A stretch of 29,731 nt of DNA, from the UHGV virus genome UHGV-2199876; one strand, 5' to 3'. Below the pieces are notes generated by a model that was given only the letters and a program-made list of their open reading frames with translations, was not told the DNA's origin and did no database searches. The stretch is from a virus. This document shows, piece after piece, positions 7,903 to 25,132 of this stretch. Made by a program: the position numbers and the translations under genes. How positions within the stretch are numbered: position 1 is the first letter of the stretch; each line of letters starts with the position of its first letter.

Positions 7903-9816
7903 ATGAGCAAAGTAAAAATCGGTGAATTAATAAACTCACTTGTTAGCGATGTTGAGTCAATAGATAACTCTGACCGTCCTCAAGGGGAGAAAACAAAAAA
8001 AATAAAGGCTGTTGCATTAAAATTTAAAAATGCATTATTTAATGACAAGCGAAAGTTTAGGGGTAAAGGATTAGAAAAAAGAATTACAGCCAACACATTC
8101 AATGCCTATATGAGCAGGGCCAGAAAACGGTTTGATGATAAACTTCATCATAGCTTTGAAAAAAATATACATCGCCTATCTGAAAAGTATCCTTTATATA
8201 ATGAGGAGCTATTATCATGGCTTTCTCTACCTGCTGCCGATATTCGCCAGAGAATGTCAGCTTTACAGGCAAAATTAAAATTAATTCTCCCTCTATCAGA
8301 AGATTTATCTAATATCAGAATTGGCGATAACAAAAATCATAATAAGTTATTAAAATTATCAAATAAATATAAAGAGTGGCAATTCGCCATTTCTGATTTA
8401 ACTAGCGATAACTGGAAAGATAAGCGCGATTATTTATATAAATTACTACAGCAAGGATCTGCCTTACTTGAGGAGTTGAATCAGCTAAAAGTTAACCATG
8501 AGATTCTCTATCATCTTCAACTAAGCCCTGCCGAACGCGCATCTATCCAGCAACGATGGGCGGACGTTCTGCACAATAAGAAACGTAACGTGGTGGTCAT
8601 TGATTACCCCAAATATATGCAAGCTATTTACGATATTATAAATAGCCCTGCTACATTAAATAATCTAAACACTCGTTCAGGTATGGCTCCTTTGGCATTT
8701 GCACTTGCTGCATTGTCAGGAAGACGAATGATTGAGATTATGTATCAAGGTACATTTACTGTTTCTGGTAAGTATACCGTTGATTTTTTAGGCCAAGCAA
8801 AAAAAAGAACTTCTGATGATATAACCAGAAAAATATATACATTATGCGAAGCAAAAACATTTGTTTATTTAATAAATGTACTTCGCTCATGCCCAGCAGC
8901 ATCTGATTTTGATGATGTCGTTAAAGGTTATGGAGATAACGACACACGCTCTGAAAACGGACGGATTAATGCCATATTAGCAAAGGCTTTTAACCCGTGG
9001 GTTAAATCATTTTTCAAAGATGACCGCCGTGTTTATAAAGATAGTCGTGCTATTTATGCCCGTATTGCGTATGAAATGTTTTTCCGCGTAGATCCTCGTT
9101 GGAAAAACGTAGATGAGGATGTTTTCTTTATGGAAATTTTAGGCCATGACGATGAAAACACTCAATTACACTATAAGCAATTCAAGCTGGCCAACTTCTC
9201 AAAGACATGGAGGCCAAATACTGGAAACGAAAATACCAGGCTGGAAGCATTGCAGCAGCTTGATGACGAAATGCCAGGATTCGCCAGAGGAGATGCCGGA
9301 GTTCGTCTGCATAACACAGTTAAGCAGCTGGTAGAGCAGGACCCCTCTATAAAAATCACGAACAGCACTCTAAGAGCATTCAAATTTAGCCCTACAATGA
9401 TTAGTCGATACCTAGAATTTGCTGCTGATGCTCTGGGGCAATTTGTTGGCGAAAATGGACAATGGCAGCTGAAAATAGATTCTCCAGAAATCGTTATGCC
9501 TGACGAAGAAGAGCTGGAAGCAATACCTGAACAGACGGATGAATTATCAGAGGATGACGATCTGGATGACGACGAAATTGAGATAGAGATAGAGGAAGAG
9601 GAAGAGGAAGAGGAAGAGGAAGAGAGCGTAGAAGAACAGCAACCGCCCGCGCCTTCTTCACCTGTATCTAAGCCGGTATTTAAGCCTGTGAGAAATATTG
9701 GTGATGGATCATACGTTGTTGAATTTCATTATAATGGCCAGAATTATGCTTGGTCCGGCAGTGCAAACAGCCCTATATCAGCAATGCAGTTAGCATGGCT
9801 GACATATTTCGGATAA
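7903..9816 (+). CDS. telN: Protelomerase (telomere resolvase) TelN
   Basis: 637-aa ORF closely matching N15 TelN as I remember it (MSKVKIGELIN..., RITANTFNAYMSRARKRFDDKLHHSF, VVVIDYP, GRINAILAKAFNPWVKSFF). Acidic C-terminal tract. SD GGAGAGG upstream. Confidence 0.93.
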   Translation: MSKVKIGELINSLVSDVESIDNSDRPQGEKTKKIKAVALKFKNALFNDKRKFRGKGLEKRITANTFNAYMSRARKRFDDKLHHSFEKNIHRLSEKYPLYNEELLSWLSLPAADIRQRMSALQAKLKLILPLSEDLSNIRIGDNKNHNKLLKLSNKYKEWQFAISDLTSDNWKDKRDYLYKLLQQGSALLEELNQLKVNHEILYHLQLSPAERASIQQRWADVLHNKKRNVVVIDYPKYMQAIYDIINSPATLNNLNTRSGMAPLAFALAALSGRRMIEIMYQGTFTVSGKYTVDFLGQAKKRTSDDITRKIYTLCEAKTFVYLINVLRSCPAASDFDDVVKGYGDNDTRSENGRINAILAKAFNPWVKSFFKDDRRVYKDSRAIYARIAYEMFFRVDPRWKNVDEDVFFMEILGHDDENTQLHYKQFKLANFSKTWRPNTGNENTRLEALQQLDDEMPGFARGDAGVRLHNTVKQLVEQDPSIKITNSTLRAFKFSPTMISRYLEFAADALGQFVGENGQWQLKIDSPEIVMPDEEELEAIPEQTDELSEDDDLDDDEIEIEIEEEEEEEEEEESVEEQQPPAPSSPVSKPVFKPVRNIGDGSYVVEFHYNGQNYAWSGSANSPISAMQLAWLTYFG

Positions 9817-9829
9817 AGCATACGGTAAA

Positions 9830-9856: not shown

Positions 9857-9861
9857 GTGGT

Positions 9862-10256: not shown

Positions 10257-10423
10257 GCAGCCACCTCGCGCACCGGAATACGGGCAGACAATACCAGGAC
10301 AAACCGGCTGGCGAACTGGCGACGAGCTTCCCGTTCAGATGACGCGATAGTGGAAAGATGATGAATGTGGGACTTTTTGTCTGTGCGAACGACTGCCGCA
10401 AATTTGAATTTGAACATGGTATG

Positions 10424-10640: not shown

Positions 10641-10797
10641 ACTGCGGGATTTACCGCAGCGAGGTGACTTTACCTCCAAAACGACGCACACGTCAATAAT
10701 TTGCAAAGACATTTTACCCCGTGACCAGTCACGGGGACAGGTGTTTTTATAGTTTGCTTGAACGAGTGATCAGAAGTTGATCGTTAATCAAAGGCCA

Positions 10798-11109: not shown

Positions 11110-11112
11110 AAC

Positions 11113-11520: not shown

Positions 11521-11837
11521 TCACCATCAGCAAACAAAGCGTTATACTCTGACAATGGTAGACGGTTGCCCTCGATGTAGAGATTCAGTTCATACTTCGT
11601 CTCCGGGTTTTCCTTGTCGGCTCGTTCCCAACGCTCAGCAGCCTTACGCGCCAATAATTCCACTGCTTTCAGGTAATCCTCCGTACGGAACCAGCCAAAG
11701 ATAAGGCCACGATCTGTTACAGCCCAGGCGACCTTTTTTTCTTCCTCCTGGATAGCCTTAATGCGTCGATCGCATTCATCCCGGCAGAACTGCAGCTGAC
11801 GGTAATCAAGTTTGTCCAAAAATGCAGTAGTAGACAT
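11511..11837 (-). CDS. Hypothetical protein (108 aa)
   Basis: ORF with a GGGGAG SD upstream. Sits in the repA-distal operon. No recognised motif. Confidence 0.5.
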   Translation of the reverse strand: MSTTAFLDKLDYRQLQFCRDECDRRIKAIQEEEKKVAWAVTDRGLIFGWFRTEDYLKAVELLARKAAERWERADKENPETKYELNLYIEGNRLPLSEYNALFADGEWG

Positions 11838-11841
11838 ATTT

Positions 11842-12033
11842 TTACTCCCCGTTCACCGAAAAATCACGATAGAAGCGTTTCCACATACGATAAGTCTGCG
11901 CGAGTTGTTCACCACGAAACATCGCCTTCCTGGCCTTCATGTTTTCCTTGTGAGACTTTCGATCTATGAACCAAAACCATTGCTGGAACACACAAAGCAA
12001 GAGACACAAAGATAATATCCACTGATTACCCAT
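11842..12033 (-). CDS. Small membrane protein (63 aa) translationally coupled to the repA stop
   Basis: The ATG at 12033-12031 overlaps the repA TAA (ATGGGTAA). Sequence MGNQWILSLCLLLCVFQQWFWF... has one TM segment. The ORF track's longer 102-aa version runs back into repA. Confidence 0.35.
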   Translation of the reverse strand: MGNQWILSLCLLLCVFQQWFWFIDRKSHKENMKARKAMFRGEQLAQTYRMWKRFYRDFSVNGE

Positions 12034-15000
12034 AGAAAGCGCCCTGCTCTTCGTAGCTGCATGAGCTATTCCCGGTAATGTATTCTCGTAACCGCCGCAA
12101 TTCATTGCTGGACAAGTGATCCATGAACTCTGTGAGATACAGAGATGCAAACGTCATAGCTATGCTGGCTGATGACCATGATGACATAGTGGCCAGCTCC
12201 TCACCGGAAAGCGCACTCATCGCCCAGGACTCAGGAACAGCCACCGGCAATACGGCCAAAGCCTCAGAAATTACTGAATGAGGGGCGTTTTGAACCTGCT
12301 CGTTTGTGGATCGCGTTTTATCATCCATATATATATTGAGATCCAAATCGCGATCCATTTCGATGGCTGTCTTCTCGGCTTTACGCGTTTTTAGGGTTAG
12401 GCCATCTTTCTGACGCTGAACAAGAATATCCAGCATAAATGCCGCTGATTCAGGCTCAACAAAACGCAAGGTTGGACGCTTATCGCCGTCTCTGCCGCGA
12501 CGTTTACCTGTTTTAAGGCCAAGAGAGTCGCAAATGTTTTTAAACAACGCTTCCGGCACTTTAGGCTTCCCTTTTGGCGTCATAAAACCACCAATGTGCA
12601 GAACGTTATTCAACAGGTCACGGCGTTCGGCTGTCATGAGGTTATCTCGAGCGAATTTGAGACGCTCCTGAGTCGCCTCGCCGGTCATAGTCTCAGGGTT
12701 GATACCGCAGTCGATAAAGTACTGCCGGAGAGTTGCTGATTTAAGCGCATAGAAACCGCGCGCCCCGACTTCAACAGTAGGAGTAGCTTTTACCTTGTAG
12801 TCGATTATTCCAGGGAATTTAGTTTTAAAGACATCATCAGCCTGCTCGCGAGTCATCGCGGTCACTACAAAATATTGCCACTGTCCCGCCTGACGGTATG
12901 CGTAGGTAAAATTGATGGCTGCTTCTTCCCGGTCGTAACGACGAGCTGTTACCTCATCTAAAAGCATTGTTTCATAGCGGCGAACTTTGTCTCGAGCACC
13001 ATCGAAATAGAATTTCAGCGTGCCTTCTTCAACCGGTAGTTTCAGTTCGTTCTCAATATCCCAGCGGACAAGTTTTGCTTGTTCTTCAAGCGTCAGCGCG
13101 CGTTTTTTTAGCAGTTCTTCACGCTCTGATTCTTGTGGAGTTTCTGTATTGAGATGCAGATCCAGTGTCTGTTCCCACACAATATCCCGCGCTTCTTTAC
13201 GCAGATCTTTACCGATATCATTCGCAGCATAATCGGTGGCCAGCGGCGATACCTTATAACCGTCGCTGTGCATGATGCAGATCATGTTGCTGGCGTAGTC
13301 GTTACGCGCAGACGCTTCAATTGCGGCTGCTTTAATTTTCATCCTGGTAAAGTCGGTATTGGCCACCCCCATTGATATACGGTCGCCATCGAAAACGACA
13401 TCCGTCAGTTCACCGTTCATGCCTGCGGTAGCAAGCAATGCCTGGGCGAATGCTCGTTCTATTTTTTGCGGGTCAGTTTCACGTTTTGCGCGAGCTTTAT
13501 CAAAGCCGATAATAAATTCTTTTGCTGTACGGTCGCGGCGTAGCATTTGCACTGCGTCGCTGGGTACAACTTCACCACAGAACATGCCGAAATGACGGTC
13601 AAAATGTTTTTGCTCAATCGACACACCGGATGAAATAGACGGGCTATAAATCAGGCCGTCGTATTTTTTGACCATCTTTTTCGGTTGATTGGTAAATGCT
13701 TCAACTTCTGGCTCTGGTTTGTTTTTCTGGTTTACACACAGAAATTTCTTACCAGGAAAATGCATTCTCAGGGTGGCTGTCACATCTTCTGCAAAGGTGG
13801 AGCTGTCGGTGGCCAACATGATTTTTTCGCCATCCGATACAGCTTTCACCACCTCGGTCATAATGCGATCTTTTTCTGTATAAAAAACCCGGATTGGCTC
13901 ACCTGTTTCGCGGTTGCGAACATCAACAGGTAATTCAATTACGTGGATCTGCAGCCATGCCGGTAAACCTAGTTCTTCACGGCGTTTCATAGCCAGTTCA
14001 GCCAGGTCAACCAGCAGATCGTTCGCATCAGCATCCACCATTATTGGGTGTTGTTCCGTTCTGGCCAGCGCGTCGATTAACGTATTGAATACAGCCACCG
14101 GGTTTTCCATAGCCCGACCGGAAAGAACGGCACGTAGCCCTTGCGTGGCCTCGTCAAAGCCAAAATAGTCGTGCTGGCGCATCAACGGTTGCCAGCAGTT
14201 TTTAACAATCGAGTTTATGCAGATGGTCAGTTTACTGGCGTATGGAGCCATTTCCTGATAGCCAGGGTCCTGATAGTGCAGGATATCGGCTTTTACACCT
14301 TTTCCTTCTGTCATCATTTCCCACAGGCCACCAATAAGGGAAACACGGTGAGCAACAGAGATACCACGTTCTGAGCTATGCATTAAAGGTCGTAACAATC
14401 CAGTAGATTTGCCGGAACCCATACCAGCACGAACGATGACTATCCCCTGTAGTGATTGCACATACTTCAGGACGTCATCGGTCATTACCGAAGTTTCAAA
14501 ACGCTTATAGGTGATATGTTGAGGACGTTTATTGGGATCAGTTATGCGTTCGCTGAATGAGCGCGGAGCCTGGGCAATACGGCACTTTTTATTCAGGCGA
14601 CGGGCAATGTGGTCTTTTACCGTAGCGCGATAGATATTTTCCAGCCCCATTTCACGCAGAACGATGCAGAACATGTTAAATAAGTCTGACGGACTGTTAG
14701 GAACCGGACAGGTTAGCATGCCAATATCCACCGCTCTCAGCAGCTCTTTGGCAAAAGTACGACGGTTATCCCGCTTAATTGTCTTCAGGCGGTTGAGCGT
14801 CAGAGATAGCAAATCAGTGCCGGTTTTCAGGCGGTTTGCAGTTGCAAACAGTTGACGTGCTGTTTCACGAAGTCCACGCAGTTTGTGCAGGTCGTTGAAG
14901 TCACTGCACTCCATTTGCGGATCGTCTTCAAAAGTTGGATAGACGCAGCGGACATCGTTGAATTTCGATAAGATTTCATAGCCAGTCCGCAGGCCGGTAT

Positions 15001-16021
15001 TCCCTTTTCCTTCTGTGGCTGATTTCCGGTCATTATCCAGTGCGCAGGTGATTTTTGCCGCCGGGTACATGTTTACCAGTTGTTCCACAACATGAACCAT
15101 GTTATTAGCGGATACAGCGACAACCACAGCGTCAAAGCGTTTATCTTTTTTCGTGGCAAGCCAGATGGATGCACCAGTAGCAAAACCTTCTGTAACAGCG
15201 ATGTTTTGCGCCCCTTTTAGCTCACCGATAACAAAGCAGGCACCGACGAAATCGCCGCTGGTTACGGCGCTGGTCTGGTATTTTCCACCTTGTTTGTCGA
15301 TTCGCTGCCAACCCACAATACGACCATCGTAACGACCGTCCAGGTGAGCCAGAGGGATAGCCATATACGTGGTTGGCCCCCTGCTCCATTTTGCGCTGTC
15401 GTGACTGGTCACGCGACGCACATCACACGAATTAAAAACGTCACGAATACCTTTTTTAATCGCATATGGCCATGAGCCGTCTTCTGCAGGAGCATGTTCC
15501 CACGCGCTGTGGAATGCCAGCCATCCCAGCAAACGTTCATGGTCCATTTGGTTGTTTTTCAGGTCATTAATTCGTTTTTGTTCTTCACGGCGACGACGTG
15601 CTTCGGCCTGACGTTCTATTCTTGCCCGTTCTTCTTCCGGTTGTGCGACCACGGTCGCATTATTCCGTTGTTGCTCACGGCGATATTCAGAAAACAGGAA
15701 GGAGAAACCGCTCCATGAGCCAGCATCGCTGCCTTTATGGACGAAGTTAATGAACGGGTAATCAATCCCTTTGCTGTGTTCCAGCCGGGAGTAAATTTCT
15801 ACGCGTCCTTTGAGGCTCTTTTCGAGAGCTTCTGGAGATGTTTTATTGTATGAAGAGTAACGCTCAACACCCCCGCGAGGGTTGAGTTGGATGTTGTCGG
15901 AACAGGCAGACCAGTTGATACCAGCCATCTGTGCCAGCTCGGTTAGTTCATCCCGTGCTGCTTCAATTAGCGAGAACGGATCGCTGCCAAAGCGATCCGC
16001 ATAGAAATCGTTTAATGTCAT
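12026..16021 (-). CDS. repA: Replication protein RepA (multidomain primase-helicase, N15 RepA / P4 alpha-like)
   Basis: 1331-aa ORF with Walker A (VRAGMGSGKST) in the central helicase region and a primase-like N-terminal part. Size and position match N15 repA. Confidence 0.9.
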   Translation of the reverse strand: MTLNDFYADRFGSDPFSLIEAARDELTELAQMAGINWSACSDNIQLNPRGGVERYSSYNKTSPEALEKSLKGRVEIYSRLEHSKGIDYPFINFVHKGSDAGSWSGFSFLFSEYRREQQRNNATVVAQPEEERARIERQAEARRRREEQKRINDLKNNQMDHERLLGWLAFHSAWEHAPAEDGSWPYAIKKGIRDVFNSCDVRRVTSHDSAKWSRGPTTYMAIPLAHLDGRYDGRIVGWQRIDKQGGKYQTSAVTSGDFVGACFVIGELKGAQNIAVTEGFATGASIWLATKKDKRFDAVVVAVSANNMVHVVEQLVNMYPAAKITCALDNDRKSATEGKGNTGLRTGYEILSKFNDVRCVYPTFEDDPQMECSDFNDLHKLRGLRETARQLFATANRLKTGTDLLSLTLNRLKTIKRDNRRTFAKELLRAVDIGMLTCPVPNSPSDLFNMFCIVLREMGLENIYRATVKDHIARRLNKKCRIAQAPRSFSERITDPNKRPQHITYKRFETSVMTDDVLKYVQSLQGIVIVRAGMGSGKSTGLLRPLMHSSERGISVAHRVSLIGGLWEMMTEGKGVKADILHYQDPGYQEMAPYASKLTICINSIVKNCWQPLMRQHDYFGFDEATQGLRAVLSGRAMENPVAVFNTLIDALARTEQHPIMVDADANDLLVDLAELAMKRREELGLPAWLQIHVIELPVDVRNRETGEPIRVFYTEKDRIMTEVVKAVSDGEKIMLATDSSTFAEDVTATLRMHFPGKKFLCVNQKNKPEPEVEAFTNQPKKMVKKYDGLIYSPSISSGVSIEQKHFDRHFGMFCGEVVPSDAVQMLRRDRTAKEFIIGFDKARAKRETDPQKIERAFAQALLATAGMNGELTDVVFDGDRISMGVANTDFTRMKIKAAAIEASARNDYASNMICIMHSDGYKVSPLATDYAANDIGKDLRKEARDIVWEQTLDLHLNTETPQESEREELLKKRALTLEEQAKLVRWDIENELKLPVEEGTLKFYFDGARDKVRRYETMLLDEVTARRYDREEAAINFTYAYRQAGQWQYFVVTAMTREQADDVFKTKFPGIIDYKVKATPTVEVGARGFYALKSATLRQYFIDCGINPETMTGEATQERLKFARDNLMTAERRDLLNNVLHIGGFMTPKGKPKVPEALFKNICDSLGLKTGKRRGRDGDKRPTLRFVEPESAAFMLDILVQRQKDGLTLKTRKAEKTAIEMDRDLDLNIYMDDKTRSTNEQVQNAPHSVISEALAVLPVAVPESWAMSALSGEELATMSSWSSASIAMTFASLYLTEFMDHLSSNELRRLREYITGNSSCSYEEQGAFYG
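15644..15659. other. sopC-like centromere site (TGCGACC-AC-GGTCGCA) inside repA
   Basis: 16-bp match to the inverted repeat shared by the four other sites. Same 7-2-7 architecture as F sopC (TGGGACC-AC-GGTCCCA). Confidence 0.55.
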
Positions 16022-16144
16022 TTTTTAGCCATTCCATGCGAATTATGTTTTTTCGGGTTGAAAAAATCCGCAGGAGCAGCCACAATAAACGCATCTTGAA
16101 TTGACGGAATCCGTCGCGTTACTGTGGCTGCTTCCTGAAAAGGA

Positions 16145-16172
16145 CCCGAGTTTGCCGACTCGGGTTTTTTTT
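16145..16172 (+). terminator. Hairpin followed by T8 between cB and repA
   Basis: CCCGAGT-ttgccg-ACTCGGG followed by TTTTTTTT. The plus-strand orientation is the strongest, but both flanking genes are on the minus strand. Confidence 0.4.
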
Positions 16173-16266
16173 CGTCTTTTTTCTGCTGCTGTAACCTGAG
16201 TCAACCCACAGAACATATGCTCTGCATTAAACCAGATTTACAGCAAACAATAAACCCCGTATTAAG

Positions 16267-16863
16267 TCATCTACCCTCAACCATGAATGATTTGATCGTT
16301 CCGACTATTTGGTGAACAAATTCAAGATCGCTTTTCCTGAAGATGGCGCGTTGTGAATTTGTTCCGTCCAGATAGTAATTTTCATCATCAAAACGGGCCA
16401 GGCGCTGGATGGTGATATTTCCTGCAGTATCACGAACCAGAACATCCTCGCCGGGAACCAGTTCCAGCGCAGAATCGACCAGGAGAAAATCGCCTGGCTG
16501 ATAGTTTCCCTGCGCCAGATTGCTGATAGTTAACGCATAAACAGTATTGCGCTGGCTGATGAATGGCAGGAATCGCTCAGTATTTGGAACCTGTCCTGGC
16601 TTCCACTCTTCATCAGGTCCACTTTCAGTTGTGCCAATAACAGGAATGCGATCAGGGTCATATTCTGTCCCATACAGCACCCAATGCACTGGCTTGCGTA
16701 AGCATTTAGCCAGGGCAATACCTATCTCCAGTGACGGCATTACGTCGCCACGTTCTAAGTTTTGGACGCCTGCAATAGAGATATCGACAGCCTCAGCAAC
16801 TTCTCGCAACGTCAGCTTCATCTCTAAACGGCGTGCTTTCAGTCGTTCGCCTCGTGTTTTCAT
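16267..16863 (-). CDS. cB: Prophage repressor CB (cI-like: N-terminal HTH plus C-terminal S24/LexA-like domain)
   Basis: 198-aa ORF with an XRE-type HTH (LTLREVAEAVDISIAGVQNLERG) and a C-terminal region with the character of lambda cI / LexA S24 domains. Divergent from the cro-like gene. Confidence 0.85.
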   Translation of the reverse strand: MKTRGERLKARRLEMKLTLREVAEAVDISIAGVQNLERGDVMPSLEIGIALAKCLRKPVHWVLYGTEYDPDRIPVIGTTESGPDEEWKPGQVPNTERFLPFISQRNTVYALTISNLAQGNYQPGDFLLVDSALELVPGEDVLVRDTAGNITIQRLARFDDENYYLDGTNSQRAIFRKSDLEFVHQIVGTIKSFMVEGR

Positions 16864-16886
16864 AGCTTAATCATAAATGATCTTCT

Positions 16887-16927
16887 TATAGCTGGCTATA
16901 AAATTTATTTATTATAGCTGGCTTTAA
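16887..16927. promoter_or_regulatory. Immunity operators: two copies of TTATAGC-N2-GCTATAA between cB and cro
   Basis: TTATAGCTGGCTATAA at 16887-16902 and the imperfect TTATAGCTGGCTTTAA at 16912-16927. A TATAAT hexamer lies at 16943-16948. Confidence 0.5.
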
Positions 16928-17176
16928 ATGCGATTTATTGCTTATAATAACCGCATGAAACCAGAAGAACTTATTCGCCACTTTGGCAGTGTAGAAAAAG
17001 CAGCGGCTGGGGTAGGTGTAACACCCGGTGCTGTTTACCAATGGTTAACCGCTGGAGAGATTCCTTCATTGCGGCAAAGTGATATTGAAGTTCGTACTGC
17101 TTACAAGCTGAAGAGTGACTTTACAACTCGGCGGGTAAAGCAGTCGATTAAGGAGAGCCGTAAGCGTGGAGCTTGA
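16928..17176 (+). CDS. cro: Cro-like small DNA-binding regulator
   Basis: 82-aa ORF (73 aa if it starts at ATG 16955) divergent from cB. Contains a GVTPGAVYQWL HTH-like segment. Confidence 0.6.
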   Translation: MRFIAYNNRMKPEELIRHFGSVEKAAAGVGVTPGAVYQWLTAGEIPSLRQSDIEVRTAYKLKSDFTTRRVKQSIKESRKRGA

Positions 17177-17876
17177 GTATATACGCAGCTGCGTCTCCAC
17201 GGCATTGGCTGATATTCATTATCGCCAGCGTGGCATCCTAGAGGTCCAGCTTGAGCAGATGCGTCTAGGCAGATCAGGACGCTTTAACAATAAACCAGTC
17301 CGGTCAATCAGTGTAGGTGATGATAACTCATACGAAGTGTCTGTTCCTGCTGAGCCGGTTAGATTCCACCAGGGCAAAACATTTAAACAATCATCAATGT
17401 TGCTCACTGATATTGATTTTCAGAGCGCCAGCTGGCGCAGGGCTATTGGTCAGTTGAATAACGAGGAATCAGCCTGGCTTTATTATTGCTACGGATGCAA
17501 GCCTAACTACAACAATGATGTGATTGTTTGTCAGTGGTTATGGCTTGATTTTCTGGTTGCGCATTCGGGTGGCGGGTTTAAAAAAATGAAGGCCTCCACG
17601 AAAAAAGCCATGAGAAAATTGATTTATTACGCGGCACAGCAGGTTAAGTCAGAACTTACGTGTGCTGAGGCAGTTGATGATAGAGAACAGGACAGGCAGC
17701 TGAGTTTTCTACTGAATATATCTATTGATAGCTGGAGACAAGATTATAAAGAACGCTGGCTTTTAATTAAGTCGCGATGTCTGAGCTTAAATCGAACTGC
17801 ATTATTAAATGCGGCGGAGAAGCGCAGTGAAATCATCAAACGCCATCGGGCAGGAAGTGCCATTCTGCCTTTGTAA
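17166..17876 (+). CDS. Hypothetical protein at the position of the late antiterminator (Q-like?)
   Basis: 236-aa ORF immediately after cro with a GTG start. Cys cluster YYCYGCKPNYNNDVIVCQW. Assignment is by position only. Confidence 0.3.
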   Translation: MELEYIRSCVSTALADIHYRQRGILEVQLEQMRLGRSGRFNNKPVRSISVGDDNSYEVSVPAEPVRFHQGKTFKQSSMLLTDIDFQSASWRRAIGQLNNEESAWLYYCYGCKPNYNNDVIVCQWLWLDFLVAHSGGGFKKMKASTKKAMRKLIYYAAQQVKSELTCAEAVDDREQDRQLSFLLNISIDSWRQDYKERWLLIKSRCLSLNRTALLNAAEKRSEIIKRHRAGSAILPL

Positions 17877-17883
17877 ACAAGTT

Positions 17884-18129
17884 ATGTTCAGGAAACCGTC
17901 GAAGCCGGAATTAAGGTATTCGGGGGTAAGAAATGAATATGTTATCTGGTGTCCAACTTGTGGTTACAGGACACGACCAGATAGTAATAAGCAGTCTGTA
18001 ATTGCCGATTGGTATTTATCAAATCAGCCAGGTAATAAGCATATAGAAAATCTTTGGATTAAGCGTTACTTGGAAATCAGAGAGGGTGCGACCGTGGTCG
18101 CACAAGAAAATGAAAATAACGCCATTTAA
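17884..18129 (+). CDS. Small zinc-finger protein (CPTCG motif; Lar-like?)
   Basis: About 81 aa from ATG 17884 containing WCPTCGYRTRPD. The ORF-track start at 17809 overlaps the upstream gene. Confidence 0.4.
   Translation: MFRKPSKPELRYSGVRNEYVIWCPTCGYRTRPDSNKQSVIADWYLSNQPGNKHIENLWIKRYLEIREGATVVAQENENNAI
18087..18102. other. sopC-like centromere site (TGCGACC-GT-GGTCGCA)
   Basis: Same inverted repeat, at the 3' end of the zinc-finger ORF. Confidence 0.6.
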
Positions 18130-18139
18130 GCAGGGGCCG

Positions 18140-18313
18140 ATGACGCATGATGAAGCAGAGCGTCTTTCAGATACTTATCGGCGGCGTGGTAAGAAAGTTC
18201 TGGTTGTTCGTTCTGATTTTTTAGGTGATGGATATTGCGTTTATGTTCATTTACCTGAATCAGAAAGAACACCAAAACCATCCAGAACATATCAACAGAA
18301 AATTTGGGTATAG
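18140..18313 (+). CDS. Hypothetical small protein (57 aa from ATG 18140)
   Basis: ORF in the early-right operon. The ORF-track start at 18086 lies inside the sopC-like site. Confidence 0.3.
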   Translation: MTHDEAERLSDTYRRRGKKVLVVRSDFLGDGYCVYVHLPESERTPKPSRTYQQKIWV

Positions 18314-18336
18314 ATAAACGTTGAGGAGAATTATTC

Positions 18337-18936
18337 GTGACTAATCAGATTATTTACGACAGGAAACGGTCTGATGTAATGATTGACCTTGAAACAATGG
18401 GTACTAACACATGTGCTCCAATTGTTTCTATCGGGGCAGTGTTTTTTTCTCCAGAAGGTGAGGAATTAGGTCCTACTTTTTATGTGCCAGTGAATCTCAG
18501 AAGCTCGATGTTGAATGGTGGTGTCGCCGATGGTGATACCATTTTATGGTGGTTGAAACAGAGCAAGGAAGCCAGAGCCGCAATTTGTACTAATGATGCC
18601 CTTAATATTAAGGATGCACTTTTTGAATTATCACACTTTATTACTTGCCATGCATGTAATTTAAAAAAATTGAAAGTATGGGGAAATGGAGCAACATTCG
18701 ACAATGTAATTTTACGCGGTGCTTATGAGCGCGTTGGCTTAGCCTGTCCGTGGGAATATTTTAATGATCAGGATGTTCGAACAATCGTTAATCTTGGTCA
18801 GTTTATTGGTTTCAATCCTAAAAAAGATATGCCATTTGATGGTGAACGACACAATGCCCTGGCTGATGCTATTCATCAGGCTAAGTATGTATCCGCAATT
18901 TTCTCCCGTCTTGTAAAAGGGCAAGGAGAATCGTAA
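18337..18936 (+). CDS. DEDDh-family 3'-5' exonuclease
   Basis: Motif I MIDLETMG, motif II VWGNGATFDN, motif III H-NALADA. GTG start with a GAGGAG SD. Confidence 0.7.
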   Translation: MTNQIIYDRKRSDVMIDLETMGTNTCAPIVSIGAVFFSPEGEELGPTFYVPVNLRSSMLNGGVADGDTILWWLKQSKEARAAICTNDALNIKDALFELSHFITCHACNLKKLKVWGNGATFDNVILRGAYERVGLACPWEYFNDQDVRTIVNLGQFIGFNPKKDMPFDGERHNALADAIHQAKYVSAIFSRLVKGQGES

Positions 18937-19355
18937 TGGCAAAGGCTTTTACACCAGAACAGAGGGAAGAACTGAATAAACAAATTGTGGAACTCGTGCG
19001 CCTGAATGGACGAGGAACGGTTAGGCAACTTGCGGATGAAACTGGTATTAGCCGGTGTGCTGTTAGTCGTTTATCAAGAGAGCTTGCTGCCAGTGGTGAT
19101 TTGTATATCTCTGGCTCCGGGATATTTCTGTCTGCACAAGCACGCAAGGACTGGCAAAACGCCCGTAAAAAACTATCAAGAGTAAAGCCGAAGACATCGG
19201 TAGTGGTTGATCCAGACCTTATCTGGTCATTACCTGACGGAGAAATACGTCGTTACGACAGGCGCTTGAACATGATTTGTCACGATTGCCGGAAAAGTGA
19301 AGTTATGCAGCGTGTGCTGGCTTTTTATCAGGGAAATTTACAGGAGGTGGCGTAG
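18936..19355 (+). CDS. Putative HTH DNA-binding protein (139 aa)
   Basis: GTVRQLADETGISRCAVSRLSRELAASGD has HTH character. AAGGAGA SD. Confidence 0.45.
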   Translation: MAKAFTPEQREELNKQIVELVRLNGRGTVRQLADETGISRCAVSRLSRELAASGDLYISGSGIFLSAQARKDWQNARKKLSRVKPKTSVVVDPDLIWSLPDGEIRRYDRRLNMICHDCRKSEVMQRVLAFYQGNLQEVA

Positions 19356-19645
19356 TGAATATCGACACCACGATAACGATCGATACGGCCCTAAATATCG
19401 GTCTGGCACTTCTCGGTTGGTTTTACATCATGTTCAGTGCGGGGAAGTGGGCGGCCTCTGTTTTTCTAAAGCAGTGGGGAAAGCACCGCAAACAGGAAAG
19501 ACGCCAGAAAGTGTTAGAGGCGTTCTATGACGCATTTGAACTTAGCCGCATTGAGCCAGGCACAACAGCCAAGATAGCGACAAAAGGCGACCTGATGATA
19601 GTGATGTTCCGACAGGAGAGAGCAGATAAAGGGGAATCAGCATGA
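19355..19645 (+). CDS. Small membrane protein (96 aa)
   Basis: GTG start with a CAGGAGGTGG SD. TM segment IGLALLGWFYIMFSAG. Confidence 0.45.
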   Translation: MNIDTTITIDTALNIGLALLGWFYIMFSAGKWAASVFLKQWGKHRKQERRQKVLEAFYDAFELSRIEPGTTAKIATKGDLMIVMFRQERADKGESA

Positions 19646-20301
19646 AATTTTCCAAATTTTCTGAGTTGGTGAATCGTATTTTGTCCAACAACCACAGCCA
19701 TCGTCGCGATATGGATGTAACAATCGTTATTCATTCGCCTGGCAGCATTGGTTCAACACCCTCAGTTGAGGTTCAGTCAATTCACGCTGGTTTTGATTGG
19801 GATTCCGGGAAAGTGCTGATTTTCCCAGCACAGCCACTGACCACGCTAACACCAGAACAGATTACTGATATTACTGATAGTGTGCGCAAAGGTCAGTCCT
19901 GGCACGCATATCAGGAATACAAGAAGCATAAAGAGCAGTTGGAAAAATTGTCGATTGAACTGGATGCTGCAAAACAGCGCGTAGCAGAACTGGAAGCCAA
20001 ACCTGTAAGCCAAACTTACAAGTTAACTTTTGAGCAATGGCTGGAACAGCAGCATGACAAAATTGATGTTGATTGTGGATGTGTAAGTACTGAAATGTTT
20101 ATGCACTGGATAAGGGTCGCGTATGAGGCTGGCAACTCTCCGGTAACTCCGGATGGTCATGTTCAGTTTTCTGTTTCACTTCCTGCAGCGTTTGGTGGAG
20201 ATAAATATTTTATTGATGGTGTATTTCAACCTTTGAGATATGAGCGTGATTGTGAAAGGGCGGTTGTGGCCGCTGGCGGTGTAGTTAGTTGGGTTAAGTA
20301 A
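19642..20301 (+). CDS. Hypothetical protein (219 aa)
   Basis: Start overlaps the upstream stop. Central coiled-coil-like stretch. No recognised domain. Confidence 0.5.
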   Translation: MKFSKFSELVNRILSNNHSHRRDMDVTIVIHSPGSIGSTPSVEVQSIHAGFDWDSGKVLIFPAQPLTTLTPEQITDITDSVRKGQSWHAYQEYKKHKEQLEKLSIELDAAKQRVAELEAKPVSQTYKLTFEQWLEQQHDKIDVDCGCVSTEMFMHWIRVAYEAGNSPVTPDGHVQFSVSLPAAFGGDKYFIDGVFQPLRYERDCERAVVAAGGVVSWVK

Positions 20302-20316
20302 TTTTCAGGAGGATTT

Positions 20317-20643
20317 ATGGCGCTGACACCGGCAGAACGGCAAAGGAGACGCAGGGAACGGTTGAAGAAGGAAGGCACATCAAGACGGGACTGGATTCTA
20401 GAACCTGACGAGTTACGTATGTTGGGGGAAATTTGTGTATTGCGTAGACCAGGGCGAGTTCCATATTCGGAGAACGAAGTCATTGGTTTGCTGATCAGGA
20501 AAAACTATAAGGAGCTGCAGAAGCAGCTATCTACTACTTGCCCGCGATGTGGTCAAAAAATGCCTGTTTCAGAATGCATTTTTGATGGCGAAGGGTCATG
20601 CCACCTTACAACCACGAGGCTGAAACTTGCGCTCAAAGTGTGA
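20317..20643 (+). CDS. Hypothetical basic protein with a C-terminal CxxC (108 aa)
   Basis: Arg-rich N-terminus (TPAERQRRRRERLKKEG) and a CPRCG motif. AGGAGG SD. Confidence 0.45.
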   Translation: MALTPAERQRRRRERLKKEGTSRRDWILEPDELRMLGEICVLRRPGRVPYSENEVIGLLIRKNYKELQKQLSTTCPRCGQKMPVSECIFDGEGSCHLTTTRLKLALKV

Positions 20644-20661
20644 CTGGTCACGGAGGGATAA

Positions 20662-20904
20662 ATGGATAAAAAGGCATTGCTTTTTGAAATGATACGAAAA
20701 CGGAGCGAAAAGAGCTTTTCTGATGGTGGTGATGGGTTTGTTTTCGCTTCGATGCTTGCTTTTGATGTTGGGTTAAATAGCAGAATTGTTAAAAGGATGC
20801 TTGATTCTGCTGTCCGTACTGGACTTCTTGAGAAAGTTGATCGTGGCATAGGGAGAGAGCATAAGTATCGGGTCACACAGCAGTTTACGCAGTTAATTCA
20901 TTGA
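20662..20904 (+). CDS. Hypothetical small protein (80 aa), possible DNA-binding
   Basis: ORF with a GGAGGG SD, preceded by a GTGAC-N2-GTCAC palindrome. Confidence 0.4.
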   Translation: MDKKALLFEMIRKRSEKSFSDGGDGFVFASMLAFDVGLNSRIVKRMLDSAVRTGLLEKVDRGIGREHKYRVTQQFTQLIH

Positions 20905-20932
20905 AAATTGACCGTAAAGTTTGAGTTTTATC

Positions 20933-20948
20933 CTGTAATTTTATACAG
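20933..20948. promoter_or_regulatory. LexA (SOS) box CTGT-N8-ACAG
   Basis: cCTGTaattttatACAGta fits the CTGT-(AT)4-ACAG consensus. Lies about 40 bp upstream of the 20987 ORF and overlaps likely promoter hexamers. Confidence 0.55.
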
Positions 20949-20986
20949 TATAAAAAACCTTTTTTAGTTAAATGGTATGAGATTTA

Positions 20987-21190
20987 ATGTCTGAAGCAGC
21001 CGTATCAACTCTTGAACAACTCGATTCAAATTTGAGAGATATTGACGCCGTTCTGGATCTGGTTAGCGTCACCCTGGCTTCTCCAGAAGCCAGCCTACAT
21101 ATTGGTGAGGTTTCACGACTCATCAACATGTCGCGAGAGATTGCCCAGCATTGTCAGAAAACTATCGCTGTTGAGCGTTCACATCATTGA
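20987..21190 (+). CDS. SOS-controlled small protein (candidate AntC-like antirepressor)
   Basis: 67-aa ORF directly downstream of the LexA box. N15 is reported to have a LexA-regulated small antirepressor, antC. Confidence 0.45.
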   Translation: MSEAAVSTLEQLDSNLRDIDAVLDLVSVTLASPEASLHIGEVSRLINMSREIAQHCQKTIAVERSHH

Positions 21191-21232
21191 TGCACACCCC
21201 GCCCTTCTGGACGGGGTAGTAAAAGAGTCTAA

Positions 21233-21520
21233 TTAATAAACAGCGCGAATATCGATGGTTGCGCCGCAGGCATGAGCATATTTAGCCAAAGTTTTCATAC
21301 TTGCCCCTAAAGGATTGCTTTCCAGGCGGCTGATGGCTGACGGTCGCAACCCCATTCGTTCAGCCAGAGCTGATTTCGTTAAACCTGCTCTTTCCCTCAT
21401 TTCGTATAACATTTCGACCATCTCCAGCTCTTTATCGGCCTCTTCATATCCTTTGATGGCTTCTGGAGTGTTGAGAAGTTTTTCTTTTACTTCGTTAAAC
21501 GGGATGCCTTTCGCTTTCAT
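21233..21520 (-). CDS. HTH (XRE-family) antitoxin
   Basis: 95-aa ORF with an HTH (LTKSALAERMGLRPSAISRLE). Its start overlaps the stop of the upstream toxin-like ORF (HigB-HigA-type order). Confidence 0.7.
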   Translation of the reverse strand: MKAKGIPFNEVKEKLLNTPEAIKGYEEADKELEMVEMLYEMRERAGLTKSALAERMGLRPSAISRLESNPLGASMKTLAKYAHACGATIDIRAVY

Positions 21521-21831
21521 CAGTTCATCTCCTTCAGGCGAGTTCTGGCGATTTCGATAGCCTTCACCGGTGTTTTCTGTGTCTTTTTTACAAATGCATG
21601 CAATAGATAAATTTCGTTACCAGTCGCGTAGGCGTACAGCGTTCTTGCGATGTTTTTATCCCCTACTCGTAGTTCAAAAAGCCCTCCACCTATTACACGG
21701 CTATGGGGCATCTTCAGTTTGTTGCCTTCCTTCTCCAGTCGCTCAATTAATCTGGTCATGCGACCTCGCAAATCATCTGGTAGTTCAAGCAGTTCATCCA
21801 GTGCTGCAGGGTGGGTTATCACGTTAAACAT
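21520..21831 (-). CDS. Gp49-like (HigB/RelE-superfamily) toxin
   Basis: 103 aa with the 'phage-derived Gp49-like' character (KMPHSRVIGGGLFELRVGD...ARTLYAY...IYLLHAFVKKTQKTP). The family is named after N15 gene 49. Confidence 0.7.
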   Translation of the reverse strand: MFNVITHPAALDELLELPDDLRGRMTRLIERLEKEGNKLKMPHSRVIGGGLFELRVGDKNIARTLYAYATGNEIYLLHAFVKKTQKTPVKAIEIARTRLKEMN

Positions 21832-21978
21832 ATTATAGCCTCCATAGCCATAAAATACACCAAAACAAGAAAAAAGCGCAAATTAAAAATTTCACTAAAA
21901 AGTGAAAAATAACACTGGATGTGTTCGTTTGGCAGAGTTACAGTTCGTGTCATTGAGGGGCAATAACCCACTAACTAT

Positions 21979-22218
21979 ATGAATTTGGAGGATATTATGA
22001 ATTATCAAGGTAACGAAAAAATGCGCGACGACGTTGCGGAGATAGCTAACGAACTGTATGAGTTGTGGCAGAAGGTTGAACGTTTCGAAAAGGAATATGG
22101 TTTCAACAGTACCAACCTGGCAGACCGACTGGCTGGTCGCTTAGTTGGGACTATGGGGCCAAAACTGGCTGAGTTGAACCGCTTTATGGCTGATGTTGAT
22201 TTCCAGTTTCAAGATTGA
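21979..22218 (+). CDS. Hypothetical protein (79 aa)
   Basis: ORF with a GGAGG SD. Confidence 0.45.
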   Translation: MNLEDIMNYQGNEKMRDDVAEIANELYELWQKVERFEKEYGFNSTNLADRLAGRLVGTMGPKLAELNRFMADVDFQFQD

Positions 22219-22231
22219 TTAGAGAGGCGTT

Positions 22232-22459
22232 ATGAATATTAATGAAATTCGTGGAAATATGACTGAAGCGGCCCTGAGTGTGGAATGTGTTATGCGTGGA
22301 TACCCACGCATTTCCCTGAAAGAGTTAAGCGAAGCCTGTTTTTTGAGTCAAGCTGCCGTTGAATTTATCATCGAACAGATGATCTGTTTTGGGGTTGCAA
22401 AGCGTAGCGGGTCTGGTCGATATTCTTTGACCGATGAATATAAGCAGGCAACTTTCTAA
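22232..22459 (+). CDS. Hypothetical protein (75 aa)
   Basis: ORF with a GAGAGG SD. Followed by a sopC-like site and a terminator. Confidence 0.45.
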   Translation: MNINEIRGNMTEAALSVECVMRGYPRISLKELSEACFLSQAAVEFIIEQMICFGVAKRSGSGRYSLTDEYKQATF

Positions 22460-22465
22460 AAACTG

Positions 22466-22481
22466 TGCGACCACGGTCGCA
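22466..22481. other. sopC-like centromere site (TGCGACC-AC-GGTCGCA)
   Basis: Inverted repeat immediately after the stop of the 22232 ORF. Confidence 0.6.
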
Positions 22482-22556
22482 CAGCACAAAAACGAAAAAG
22501 CTTGGCAAAATTACGGTTTTTAGTTATTGTTTTGTTAAGTTGGGTTTTTTGTACCC

Positions 22557-22582
22557 AACAGCCAACAAGCCGCCTTTATGGC
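22557..22582 (+). terminator. Rho-independent terminator candidate
   Basis: AGCCGCC-tttat-GGCGGTT followed by TTTTTTTG. Confidence 0.55.
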
Positions 22583-22681
22583 GGTTTTTTTGTGCCTGAA
22601 AAGTGGGCGCAGGACAAGTTGCAGCTTGTCCTGCGGTCAACCCATGCCAGAGCTATAGGCTGAACCTAAAGCCCACCCGCG

Positions 22682-23803
22682 ATGCGCATCGCCGGGTTAG
22701 CTTACCCAGGCAAAAAAATAATAGCTATGTTCAAAACCACTAATATTCATGGCGCGCAACTCGTTTGCGCAGATTCTCTGCAATTTATCAAAACCATCCC
22801 TGATAACTCGGTCAATTTGATTGCAACAGACCCACCATACTTCGGCGTAAAGGCTAACGCATGGGATAACCAGTGGGATAGCGATGCTGACTTTTTGGGG
22901 TGGATTGATGAATTTTTGGCAGAATTTTGGCGGATATTGGCCCCTAATGGCAGCCTGTATATGTTTACCGGCTCTCGCCTTGCGTCAAAAATTGAATTAT
23001 TAACTCGCGACCGTTTCAATGTTCTGAACCATATCATTTGGGCTAAACCCAGTGGTATGTGGCGCGGTTGTCATAAAGAAAGTTTAAGGGCTTATTTTCC
23101 TGCCACTGAAAGAATATTATTTGCAGAGCATTACGGCGCGTCAGGTTATGCTAAAGGTCAGTCAGGTTATGCTTCAAAATGTGCAGATTTAAGAAAAAAT
23201 ATTTTTTCTCCACTAATTGATGCTTTTTCGCTGGCTCGCCGTCAGTTAGATATATCAGCCGCAGACATTAATTCAGCAACAGGAAAGCAGATGTGTTCGC
23301 ACTGGTTTTCTTATTCGCAGTGGCGGCTTCCATCATTAAGTGATTTTAATAAACTATGCGAATTATTTCGCAGGAAGGCAGATTCACTCGGTGTCCCGTG
23401 TCCATATCCTTTTAATGTTGATTATTCAGAACATGAAAAGCGTTATAGCGATCTGAAATTGCGTTATGAGGAAGTAAAGAAGCAGTATGATGATTTGAAG
23501 GCTCAGTATGAAAATTTGCGCCGCCCATTTCATGTTACTGCTGATGTACCTTATACCGATGTATGGGAGTTTCCTCCTGTGCAATATTATCCTGGCAAGC
23601 ACCCATGTGAAAAACCTGCAGCGATGATGGAACATATTATAAAAAGTAGTTCCCGCCCCGGAGATATCGTTGCCGATTTCTTTATGGGATCAGGCTCTAC
23701 TATTAAAGCCGCGCTGAAGTTAGGTCGTCAGGCAATCGGTATTGAGATTGAGGGTGAACGTTATCTTCAGACAGTTGATGAAGTGAAAAAGTTATTTGAG
23801 TAA
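22682..23803 (+). CDS. Orphan DNA methyltransferase (N6-adenine / N4-cytosine type, DPPY motif)
   Basis: Motif IV IATDPPYFG near the N-terminus and motif I (FxGxG) DIVADFFMGSGSTIKAA near the C-terminus. No adjacent restriction endonuclease. Start may be ATG 22727. Confidence 0.8.
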   Translation: MRIAGLAYPGKKIIAMFKTTNIHGAQLVCADSLQFIKTIPDNSVNLIATDPPYFGVKANAWDNQWDSDADFLGWIDEFLAEFWRILAPNGSLYMFTGSRLASKIELLTRDRFNVLNHIIWAKPSGMWRGCHKESLRAYFPATERILFAEHYGASGYAKGQSGYASKCADLRKNIFSPLIDAFSLARRQLDISAADINSATGKQMCSHWFSYSQWRLPSLSDFNKLCELFRRKADSLGVPCPYPFNVDYSEHEKRYSDLKLRYEEVKKQYDDLKAQYENLRRPFHVTADVPYTDVWEFPPVQYYPGKHPCEKPAAMMEHIIKSSSRPGDIVADFFMGSGSTIKAALKLGRQAIGIEIEGERYLQTVDEVKKLFE

Positions 23804-23898
23804 CTGAAGAATATATTCCCCTGCCGTTTTTGATGGGGTTATTTCTCGCCGTATAGTTTCCAAGCCGAAACCTCAGCAACTATTGCGAGGTAAGAGAT

Positions 23899-24171
23899 AT
23901 GAAGATGGATGAACGATACAGCAGCGCATCTTATGGTAGTGCTGGTCTTACTGCGTTCTTTGCCAGCCTGTCATTGCAGGATTGGGGCTTCATTATCGGT
24001 GTCGCGTTCAGCATTATCCTCGGTGTACTTACATACCGGCTCAATAAACGCGAGCAGATGAAGCGCACGAAGATATTGCAGGACATATTGGATAAAACTG
24101 ATGCCAATAATATTTCCGCCACGGCGATGGTTATTGGTGAATTGGGAAAGAGAGCACCGAAGGAAATATGA
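23899..24171 (+). CDS. Class II holin (pinholin-like, two TM segments, dual-start MKM)
   Basis: 90 aa with two TM segments ([11 protein letters not shown] and [18 protein letters not shown]), like S21-type pinholins. Met1-Lys2-Met3 dual start. Overlaps the endolysin start. Confidence 0.7.
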
Positions 24172-24668
24172 TGCAGTCATCATTACGCAAAGCTGTCGCA
24201 ACTGCTATTGGTGGCGGGGCTATTGCCATAGCATCTGTGCTCATCTCTGGTCCGAGCGGCAACGATGGTCTGGAAGGTGTGAGACATAACCCCTACAAAG
24301 ACATCGTTGGTGTATGGACTGTATGTTACGGGCATACAGGAAAAGACATTATGCTCGGTAAAACGTATACCGAAGCAGAATGCAAAGCTCTCCTGAATAA
24401 AGACCTTGCTACTGTCGCCAGACAAATTAACCCGTACATCAAAGTCGATATACCGGAAACAACGCGTGGTGCTCTTTACTCGTTCGTTTACAACGTGGGT
24501 GCAGGCAATTTCAGAACATCGACACTTCTTCGCAAAATCAACCAGGGCGATATCAAAGGTGCATGTGATCAACTACGTCGCTGGACATATGCTGGCGGTA
24601 AGCAATGGAAAGGGCTGATGACTCGCCGTGAGATTGAGCGTGAAGTCTGTTTGTGGGGGCAGCAATGA
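24168..24668 (+). CDS. SAR endolysin (T4-lysozyme-like muramidase with N-terminal signal-anchor-release domain)
   Basis: N-terminal Gly/Ala-rich weak TM segment ([18 protein letters not shown]), then an E-x8-D-x5-T catalytic triad pattern ([16 protein letters not shown]). Confidence 0.85.
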
Positions 24669-25132
24669 GCAGAGTAACCGCAATTATCTCCGCACTGGTT
24701 ATCTGCATCATCGTCTGCCTGTCGTGGGCTGTTAATCATTACCGTGATAACGCCATCGCCTACAAAGAACAGCGTGATAAAAAAGTCAGTGAGCTGAAGC
24801 AGGCGACCGCCACCATCGCTGACATGCAGCAGCGTCAGCGTGATGTTGCTGCGCTCGATGCAAAATACACGAAGGAGTTGGCTGATGCGAAAGCTGAAAA
24901 TGATGCTCTTCGGCGCAAGCTTGATAATGGTGGTCGGGTGCTCGTCAAAGGAAAATGCTCTGTGCCATCCTCAGCCGAAACCTCCAGCGCCTCCGGCATG
25001 GGCAATGATGCCACCGTCGAACTCTCTCCAGTTGCTGGACGAAACGTTCTCGGTATCCGGGACGGAATCATCAGAGACCAGACAGCACTGAGAACGCTTC
25101 AGGAATACATCAAGACGCAATGCCCGAATTAA
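24653..25132 (+). CDS. Rz: Rz i-spanin
   Basis: The N-terminus [31 protein letters not shown] matches lambda Rz as I remember it. Coiled-coil periplasmic domain. Confidence 0.85.
24885..25091 (+). CDS. Rz1: Rz1 o-spanin (lipoprotein embedded in +1 frame of Rz)
   Basis: [21 protein letters not shown]... has a lipobox (VVGC), then a proline-rich stretch [19 protein letters not shown] upstream. Confidence 0.75.

Follow-up and report, generated by a model that had tools for sequence, protein, structure and literature searches.

Gene layout and encoded proteins

The window analysed here is the whole stretch of 29,731 nucleotides of the virus genome UHGV-2199876, and the locus of interest within it is a pair of small minus-strand genes, a Gp49-like toxin gene followed by a helix-turn-helix (HTH) antitoxin gene, which very probably form a toxin-antitoxin operon. 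The two overlapping open reading frames (ORFs) of the preliminary description were recovered exact to the base, and their toxin-then-antitoxin order and their overlap are seen in the ORF list and in the sequence (Table 1). The ORFs have the single base 21520 in common, because the stop codon of the toxin gene (TGA) and the start codon of the antitoxin gene (ATG) are joined as TGATG. The ORF list was examined from window position 20500 to 22600; all the flanking genes in it are on the plus strand, so the pair is an opposite-strand island in a rightward block, the setting that had been described for it.

The toxin matches the complete Pfam profile Gp49 (PF05973; positions 1-90 of 90) and scores 101.6 bits (cut-off 23.9) with E = 2.5e-29. 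The Pfam scan gave no match to any other toxin family. The PHROG match is phrog_2523 (E = 2.6e-43) and no model was matched in the NCBIfam search. The AlphaFold model of the toxin was built on a 49-sequence alignment and has a predicted local distance difference test (pLDDT) value of 92.8 and a predicted template modelling (pTM) score of 0.86. The model has three helices (residues 8-15, 19-38 and 89-102) and four strands (44-48, 51-57, 61-69 and 73-82). The predicted architecture is RelE-type, with two N-terminal helices and a four-stranded antiparallel sheet, and ends in the long helix that Gp49-like toxins typically have at the C terminus. In the Foldseek comparison with the PDB, the top match was Streptococcus pneumoniae HigB (6af3/6af4; template modelling (TM) score 0.78-0.81, best E = 5.5e-7), followed by Mycobacterium tuberculosis HigB1, free (7awk) and ribosome-bound (7nbu), with TM 0.77, and then by RelE proteins and Vibrio cholerae HigB2. 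The PDB sequence search again retrieved the HigB proteins of S. pneumoniae and M. tuberculosis, the former being the best (E = 5.5e-5).

The HigB1 toxin of M. tuberculosis (Rv1955; 7awk, 7nbu) has a Gp49-type fold, with 28-30% identity over the structural alignment, and provides the mechanistic model, which is cleavage of mRNA in the A site on the ribosome. Its catalytic and mRNA-contact residues are K58, E66, R68, N73, R77, F93, K95, Q98 and K99, with K113 and R117 in the C-terminal helix (PMC9098466). In the phmmer alignment, K58, E66, R68 and N73 pair with R45, E53, R55 and N60 of the window toxin, and F93, K95, Q98, K99 and K113 with F80, K82, Q85, K86 and K100. The counterpart of R77 is most plausibly R63, as judged by a common R-x-L-aromatic motif, the phmmer alignment being one residue off at this point; R117 has no equivalent because the C-terminal helix of the window toxin ends earlier. 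E53, R63, K82 and K83 do not vary among 49 toxin homologues, and R55 and F80 hardly do. Since the pocket residues of HigB1 are conserved, the toxin looks catalytically competent, and from its fold and these residues it is predicted to be a ribosome-dependent mRNA endonuclease. The gp49 family is described as degrading mRNA in a ribosome-dependent way and as having the toxin/antitoxin gene order (PMC11980606).

The antitoxin comprises an N-terminal extension of ~35 residues followed by an XRE-type HTH domain (residues 36-92), the domain of the Ata / HigA-type antitoxins (COG5606/COG1396). In Pfam, HTH_3 (E = 1.6e-12; 47.7 bits, cut-off 23), HTH_31 (E = 2.9e-9) and HTH_19 were all matched above their cut-offs. 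The PHROG match is phrog_1373, 'transcriptional regulator' (E = 1.8e-36), and in NCBIfam the HipB, MqsA and Y4mF models were matched only below their equivalog cut-offs. The PDB sequence search gave weak matches to HipB, HigA2 and S. pneumoniae HigA (6af3_B, query residues 9-90). The protein stops 3 residues past the HTH domain, with no chaperone-addiction (ChAD) tail, and no SecB-like chaperone gene was identified next to the pair, the antitoxin gene being followed by a hairpin and then by the convergent gene 47. Membership of the toxin-antitoxin-chaperone (TAC) systems is ruled out, as both the third, chaperone gene and the ChAD tail are missing; the M. tuberculosis TAC system, in contrast, presents both elements.

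These results agree with the families that had been named for the two ORFs beforehand: the RelE/HigB-superfamily, Gp49-like character of the upstream one is found alike by the profile search, the fold model and Foldseek, and the XRE HTH of the downstream one by the Pfam search. The label 'HigB-HigA-like' holds for the gene order and the fold; by family, however, the toxin falls in the Gp49/Tad branch (PF05973, COG4679) and not in the classical Rts1-type HigB family. The HigBA system of Rts1 / Proteus vulgaris shares with the window pair the toxin-first order, an XRE-HTH antitoxin, a RelE-superfamily RNase and a plasmid-stabilising role (PMC5906591), but its toxin is of another family, the window toxin having matched Gp49 alone in Pfam. 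The S. pneumoniae HigBA system (6af3/6af4) has in common the toxin-first order, the long C-terminal helix and an antitoxin that matches the window gp48 over the residues given above; however, identity is only 24-26% and the N-terminal part of the pneumococcal toxin is longer.

Table 1. Genes and sequence elements at the toxin-antitoxin locus, in window coordinates
Feature	Position	Strand	Basis or detail
Toxin gene, orthologue of N15 gene 49	21520..21831	minus	ORF, 103 aa, ATG start
Antitoxin gene, orthologue of N15 gene 48	21233..21520	minus	ORF, 95 aa, ATG start
TGATG stop/start overlap	21518-21522	minus	read from sequence
Translational-coupling junction (antitoxin AAGGAG + TGATG)	21518..21534	minus	read from sequence
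Antitoxin Shine-Dalgarno AAGGAG, within the 3' end of the toxin gene	21529-21534	minus	8 nt 5' of antitoxin ATG
Toxin Shine-Dalgarno GGAGG	21839-21843	minus	7 nt 5' of toxin ATG
Predicted sigma-70 promoter of the operon	21852..21881	minus	inferred from conservation
-35 element TTGCGC	21876-21881	minus	conservation
-10 element TGTATT, 16-nt spacer	21854-21859	minus	conservation
Alternative -10 element TATTTT, 18-nt spacer	21852-21857	minus	conservation
Palindrome TTTCACT-TTTT-AGTGAAA	21890..21907	minus	sequence; ends 8 nt upstream of -35
GC-rich hairpin between convergent genes 48 and 47	21196..21217	minus	inverted repeat, 16 nt past antitoxin stop
Neighbour genes, antitoxin side	20317..20643, 20662..20904, 20987..21190	plus	ORF list
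Neighbour genes, toxin side	21979..22218, 22232..22459	plus	ORF list

The N15-like replicon and the distribution of the cassette

The toxin is 92% identical in amino acids to N15 gp49 (92.2% by tblastn) and 91% (91.3%) to phiKO2 gp49, and the antitoxin is 86% identical to N15 gp48 and 81% to phiKO2 gp48. The pairs of N15 and phiKO2 have the same position and strand, between genes 47 and 50. By these comparisons the window pair is the orthologue of N15 genes 49 and 48, N15 gp49 being the namesake of the Pfam family Gp49, a relation that the preliminary description had not noticed. It shares with the N15 pair (NP_046945 / NP_046944) the one-base stop/start overlap, the promoter architecture and the upstream palindrome, but the nucleotide identity is just 77-80%, with synonymous sites saturated. 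When both N15 and phiKO2 are considered, nucleotide identity is 74-81%, the proportion of synonymous differences (pS) is 0.57-0.79, at or near saturation, against a proportion of non-synonymous differences (pN) of 0.03-0.11, and the ratio of non-synonymous to synonymous substitution rates (dN/dS) is 0.02-0.09 where computable. The toxin and antitoxin genes are under strong purifying selection, and the low pN with saturated pS indicates that both are maintained as protein-coding genes. These values, like the Gp49 and HTH_3 matches, lie far outside what chance would give.

By its sequence, the window belongs to the N15-like (Ravinvirus) linear phage-plasmids of Escherichia coli. Positions 20900-22200 are 100% identical to Escherichia phage YDC107_1 (Ravinvirus), 99.8% to phage PhiR46_1 and 94-100% to many plasmids of E. 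coli, E. albertii and E. fergusonii. PhiR46_1 and YDC107_1 align over positions ~7700-25000, with 99.8% and 97.5% identity respectively, and neither alignment includes the initial ~7.7 kb of the window. The gene set of the relatives comprises, before the pair, the protelomerase, a large replication protein (repA), a CB-type repressor, cro, Q and genes 46 and 47 and, after it, genes 50 and 51, a DNA methylase, the lysis genes and the terminase. This N15-type gene set and the matches to YDC107_1 and PhiR46_1 bear out the plasmid-prophage replicon of the preliminary description.

A perfect palindrome of 54 bp (27-nt arms, no spacer) was identified at 7685-7738, 165 bp upstream of a protelomerase-sized ORF (7903..9816), and the alignment to the PhiR46_1 linear prophage starts at about window position 7701. 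The element looks like an intact telRL-type protelomerase target, and the window would therefore be in the uncut permutation (virion or circularised assembly). In the GenBank record of YDC107_1 (CP025712.1 14311-44041), the protelomerase, BRO, gp31, gp36 and replication genes are duplicated in inverted orientation, as two mirrored copies with several of the genes fragmented, and this looks like an assembly artefact from read-through of a hairpin telomere. The window was compared with CP025712.1 as its simple reverse complement, which failed (69% identity); the two are not colinear because of the inverted duplication in the record and the different permutation of the window.

Relatives of the toxin with 41-92% identity were analysed in 80 genome loci from many phyla. 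An antitoxin homologue overlapping the 3' end of the toxin gene was identified in 78 of them (phmmer E 1e-54 to 4e-6), and one of the two exceptions runs off its contig; the overlaps in related loci range from 1 to 38 nt. In Buttiauxella chromosomes the cassette is found alone inside the formate-hydrogenlyase gene cluster, with no phage context, in Xenorhabdus it is beside formate dehydrogenase genes, and in integrated prophages it adjoins tail-fibre genes. The Buttiauxella copies (loci L005-L007, gene at 3001-3596) lie between molybdopterin oxidoreductase / Fe-S protein genes and hycI/hycH, and their toxin is 70% identical. A four-gene module including gp50 and gp51 was considered and rejected, the upstream ORFs of Xenorhabdus and of a metagenomic prophage being not homologous (22-29% identity in forced alignments). 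Since the cassette occurs alone in varied contexts and gp50 and gp51 are not co-conserved with it, it behaves as an autonomous mobile toxin-antitoxin cassette. Among 5,426 complete E. coli genomes it was identified in 16, all of them on plasmid-type replicons of ~36-75 kb and none on the chromosome.

The gene pair is already known and routinely annotated. Every plasmid match carries the RefSeq annotation (PGAP) 'type II toxin-antitoxin system RelE/ParE family toxin' together with 'helix-turn-helix transcriptional regulator'. The Tad-Ata system was described by Makarova et al. 2009, where Tad is similar to RelE RNases (PMC2701414), and the toxin gene first, then the antitoxin gene, is the rule for the Gp49/Tad family (PMC5906591, PMC11980606). 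The gp49-gp48 locus of the N15 prophage has been termed 'chaperone-less' (PMC3581621).

Regulatory elements around the operon

The 147-bp intergenic region between genes 49 and 50 was compared, by alignment, with its counterparts in N15, phiKO2 and less close relatives. The relatives keep TTGnGT, 17 nt and TATATT just upstream of GGAGG, even in unrelated contexts (Xenorhabdus, Erwinia), and the GGAGG of the toxin gene is also kept in N15, phiKO2, Xenorhabdus and Buttiauxella. The strict consensus scan gave no promoter for the operon, because the window version is slightly weaker, and the assignment of the promoter therefore rests on conservation. The -10 element is TATATT in N15, phiKO2 and Xenorhabdus and TGTATT in the window; with respect to N15, the second position is G instead of A and the spacer is 1 bp shorter (16 against 17 nt). 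These changes might lower the expression of the operon. No promoter for the antitoxin was identified inside the toxin gene by the consensus scan, nor a convincing one by eye; the N15 pair is said to have two promoters, one per gene, that of the antitoxin lying inside the toxin gene.

The palindrome at 21890-21907 is also present in N15, in whose GenBank record it is a stem_loop, putative rho-independent terminator. Across 9 relatives, 93.7% of cells conform to its symmetry, registers slid by at least one position pair just 22-52% of cells, and the symmetry score was equalled by 8 of 500 shuffles. Both arms change at two positions: three of the relatives (Xenorhabdus, Erwinia and an Enterobacteriaceae isolate) have TCTCT/AGAGA in place of TCACT/AGTGA, and one has TCTAT/ATAGA. 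As RNA, the palindrome forms a weak, AT-rich stem of 7 bp (-6.2 kcal/mol), and its symmetry fits such a hairpin equally as well as an antitoxin operator. Because the RNA fold is weak and nothing upstream on the minus strand needs termination, the palindrome is favoured as a candidate operator for the dimeric HTH antitoxin, and an intrinsic terminator, as annotated in N15, is less likely.

Past the antitoxin gene, N15 presents a canonical terminator and ~380 bp, whereas the window presents a GC-rich hairpin (21196-21217) without U tract and 42 bp to gene 47. A canonical hairpin with a T-run is found in the same place in N15, phiKO2 and Pseudocitrobacter. The window hairpin has -19.4 kcal/mol on the minus-strand transcript against -14.6 on the plus-strand one, the former being more stable because it has a G.U pair where the latter has an A.C mismatch. 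The sole call of the terminator scan was inside the antitoxin gene, on the wrong strand and at chance level. The toxin-antitoxin transcript probably ends at this hairpin or is stabilised by it and, with a promoter of its own and the hairpin downstream, the pair would be a self-contained transcription unit.

Other elements were identified on the toxin side. A strongly conserved intergenic block at 21917-21950 (minus-strand reading ACGAACTGTAACTCTGCC...CACATCCAG) is common to the N15, phiKO2, Pseudocitrobacter and Limoniibacter elements but is lacking where the cassette is chromosomal. Genes 50 and 51 may have a promoter or a regulatory site here. Directly 3' of gene 51, the sequence GTGCGACCACGGTCGCAC at 22465-22482 is identical to the 'putative plasmid partitioning site' of phiKO2, and this partition-type site is ~630 bp from the gene pair. 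A canonical hairpin and T8 terminator is found at 22569-22592, ~90 bp past the site, and fits the late-promoter/terminator arrangement annotated in phiKO2 and N15.

Addiction and alternative roles

It is very likely that the two genes form a type II toxin-antitoxin operon of the Gp49/Tad-Ata group (HigBA-like) without a chaperone gene, orthologous to genes 49 and 48 of N15 and carried by an N15-like phage-plasmid. A constitutive sigma-70 promoter (21852-21881) would give a bicistronic mRNA, from which the toxin would be translated first and the antitoxin by translational coupling through TGATG. The XRE-HTH antitoxin, with its N-terminal extension, would bind and neutralise the toxin and, alone or complexed with it, would probably repress the operon via the palindrome 21890-21907. 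When the low-copy linear prophage is lost by a daughter cell, or synthesis stops, the labile antitoxin would be degraded and the freed toxin would cleave mRNA in the ribosomal A site, so that the cured cell would be arrested or killed. Such post-segregational killing would stabilise the prophage in the lineage. Over-expressed N15 gp49 is said to be bactericidal in E. coli, and the N15 cassette reportedly stabilised heterologous replicons. For the window locus we infer the lability of the antitoxin, the operator function of the palindrome, the RNase mechanism and the size of the native stabilisation. Plasmid-prophage addiction, one of the two functions suggested beforehand, is also the published role of the N15 orthologue, in that the title of Dziewit et al. 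2007, as given in citing papers (PMC2701414, PMC5906591, PMC12977533), presents the N15 pair as a plasmid-stabilising toxin-antitoxin of the tad-ata group.

Several points weigh against this interpretation. Membership of the Gp49 family is no guarantee of activity, because HigB2 and HigB3 of M. tuberculosis belong to it and are non-toxic, lacking several of the residues listed for HigB1 (PMC9098466). The related cassette s044-s045 of SXT stabilised a heterologous plasmid, yet its deletion did not raise the loss of SXT (PMC2654960), so stabilisation of a test plasmid is no proof of a native addiction role. A partition system with dispersed centromere sites (annotated in phiKO2) is a further component of N15-like prophages and may make the contribution of the toxin-antitoxin pair small; given this system and the SXT result, the contribution of the module to native stability is not certain. 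Finally, the palindrome is upstream of the -35 element and not over the core promoter, an unusual place for simple autorepression.

Anti-phage defence (abortive infection or superinfection exclusion), the second function suggested beforehand, is plausible by analogy with HigBAC but unlikely to be the main role of the pair, be it instead of addiction or besides it. Infection would deplete the antitoxin, for example by host transcription shut-off, and the freed RNase would block translation before the invader finishes. TAC systems with HigBA units confer phage immunity in E. coli (bioRxiv 10.1101/2024.02.24.581848), and the second-best structural match of the toxin, M. tuberculosis HigB, also comes from a TAC system; however, the sensor of HigBAC is the SecB-like chaperone, which is absent at the window pair. 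RelE/ParE-superfamily toxins have been reviewed as defence toxins (PMC11980606), and toxin residues 43-95 match the last 54 positions of the PADLOC model NsnC (E = 2.6e-7), but these are 54 of its 293 positions, no match at the level of a system was identified in PADLOC-DB v2 and the antitoxin matches only generic HTH models. The context points in two directions, as the cassette has moron-like positions next to the tail-fibre genes of integrated prophages and is an autonomous unit transcribed in the direction opposite to that of the phage genes, whereas the chromosomal cassettes are among housekeeping genes and not in defence islands. No defence phenotype for N15 gp49-gp48 was reported in the papers retrieved. 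The NsnC match also suggests that NsnC itself ends in a Gp49/RelE-like domain.

A related and rather improbable proposal is that the cassette is, in addition, a switchable device for host shutoff or defence in the phage-plasmid life cycle, with the palindrome as the antitoxin operator. The cassette is transcribed convergently against the early-right operon, and the sole insulation is the hairpin without U tract. If the proposal were true, the operon would be silenced when the prophage is induced or when a superinfecting phage shuts off transcription, gp48 would be depleted and the gp49 RNase freed; a competitor infection would be aborted, or the toxin would contribute to host shut-off in N15-type lytic growth. 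The operator would then be upstream of the -35 element, in an unusual position that is the usual place of a promoter UP element.

That the toxin is a ParE-like poison of DNA gyrase and not an mRNA endonuclease is very improbable. The RefSeq name 'RelE/ParE family toxin' would allow it, filamentation has reportedly been caused by some tad-type toxins and ParE structures (5cw7, 7r5a, 8c24) are among the weaker fold matches with TM 0.46-0.57, but the RNase folds (HigB, RelE) are well ahead with TM 0.60-0.81, the residues of the M. tuberculosis HigB1 RNase pocket are preserved here and do not vary in the family, and the Gp49 family is listed among the ribosome-dependent mRNA degraders (PMC11980606). 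The least credible alternative is a phage regulatory module, in which gp48 would control N15-type phage genes and gp49 would be an accessory modulator with no toxin-antitoxin role in vivo: gp48 has an XRE-HTH like that of phage repressors (the PHROG 'transcriptional regulator') and the pair has the early-right genes on one side and the late promoter region on the other, but the cassette is free of phage context in the Buttiauxella and Xenorhabdus chromosomes, genes 50 and 51 next to it are not conserved along with it and the fold and catalytic residues of the toxin are intact.

With addiction as the preferred reading, the small additions made here to the known system are the palindrome as a candidate operator and the -10 element and downstream hairpin in which this allele differs. 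The pair marks N15-like elements and, beyond correct annotation, matters little. The co-varying palindrome is a concrete operator candidate for studies on the regulation of Gp49/Tad-type systems, and the pair would help to account for the persistence of a low-copy linear plasmid-prophage in E. coli lineages.

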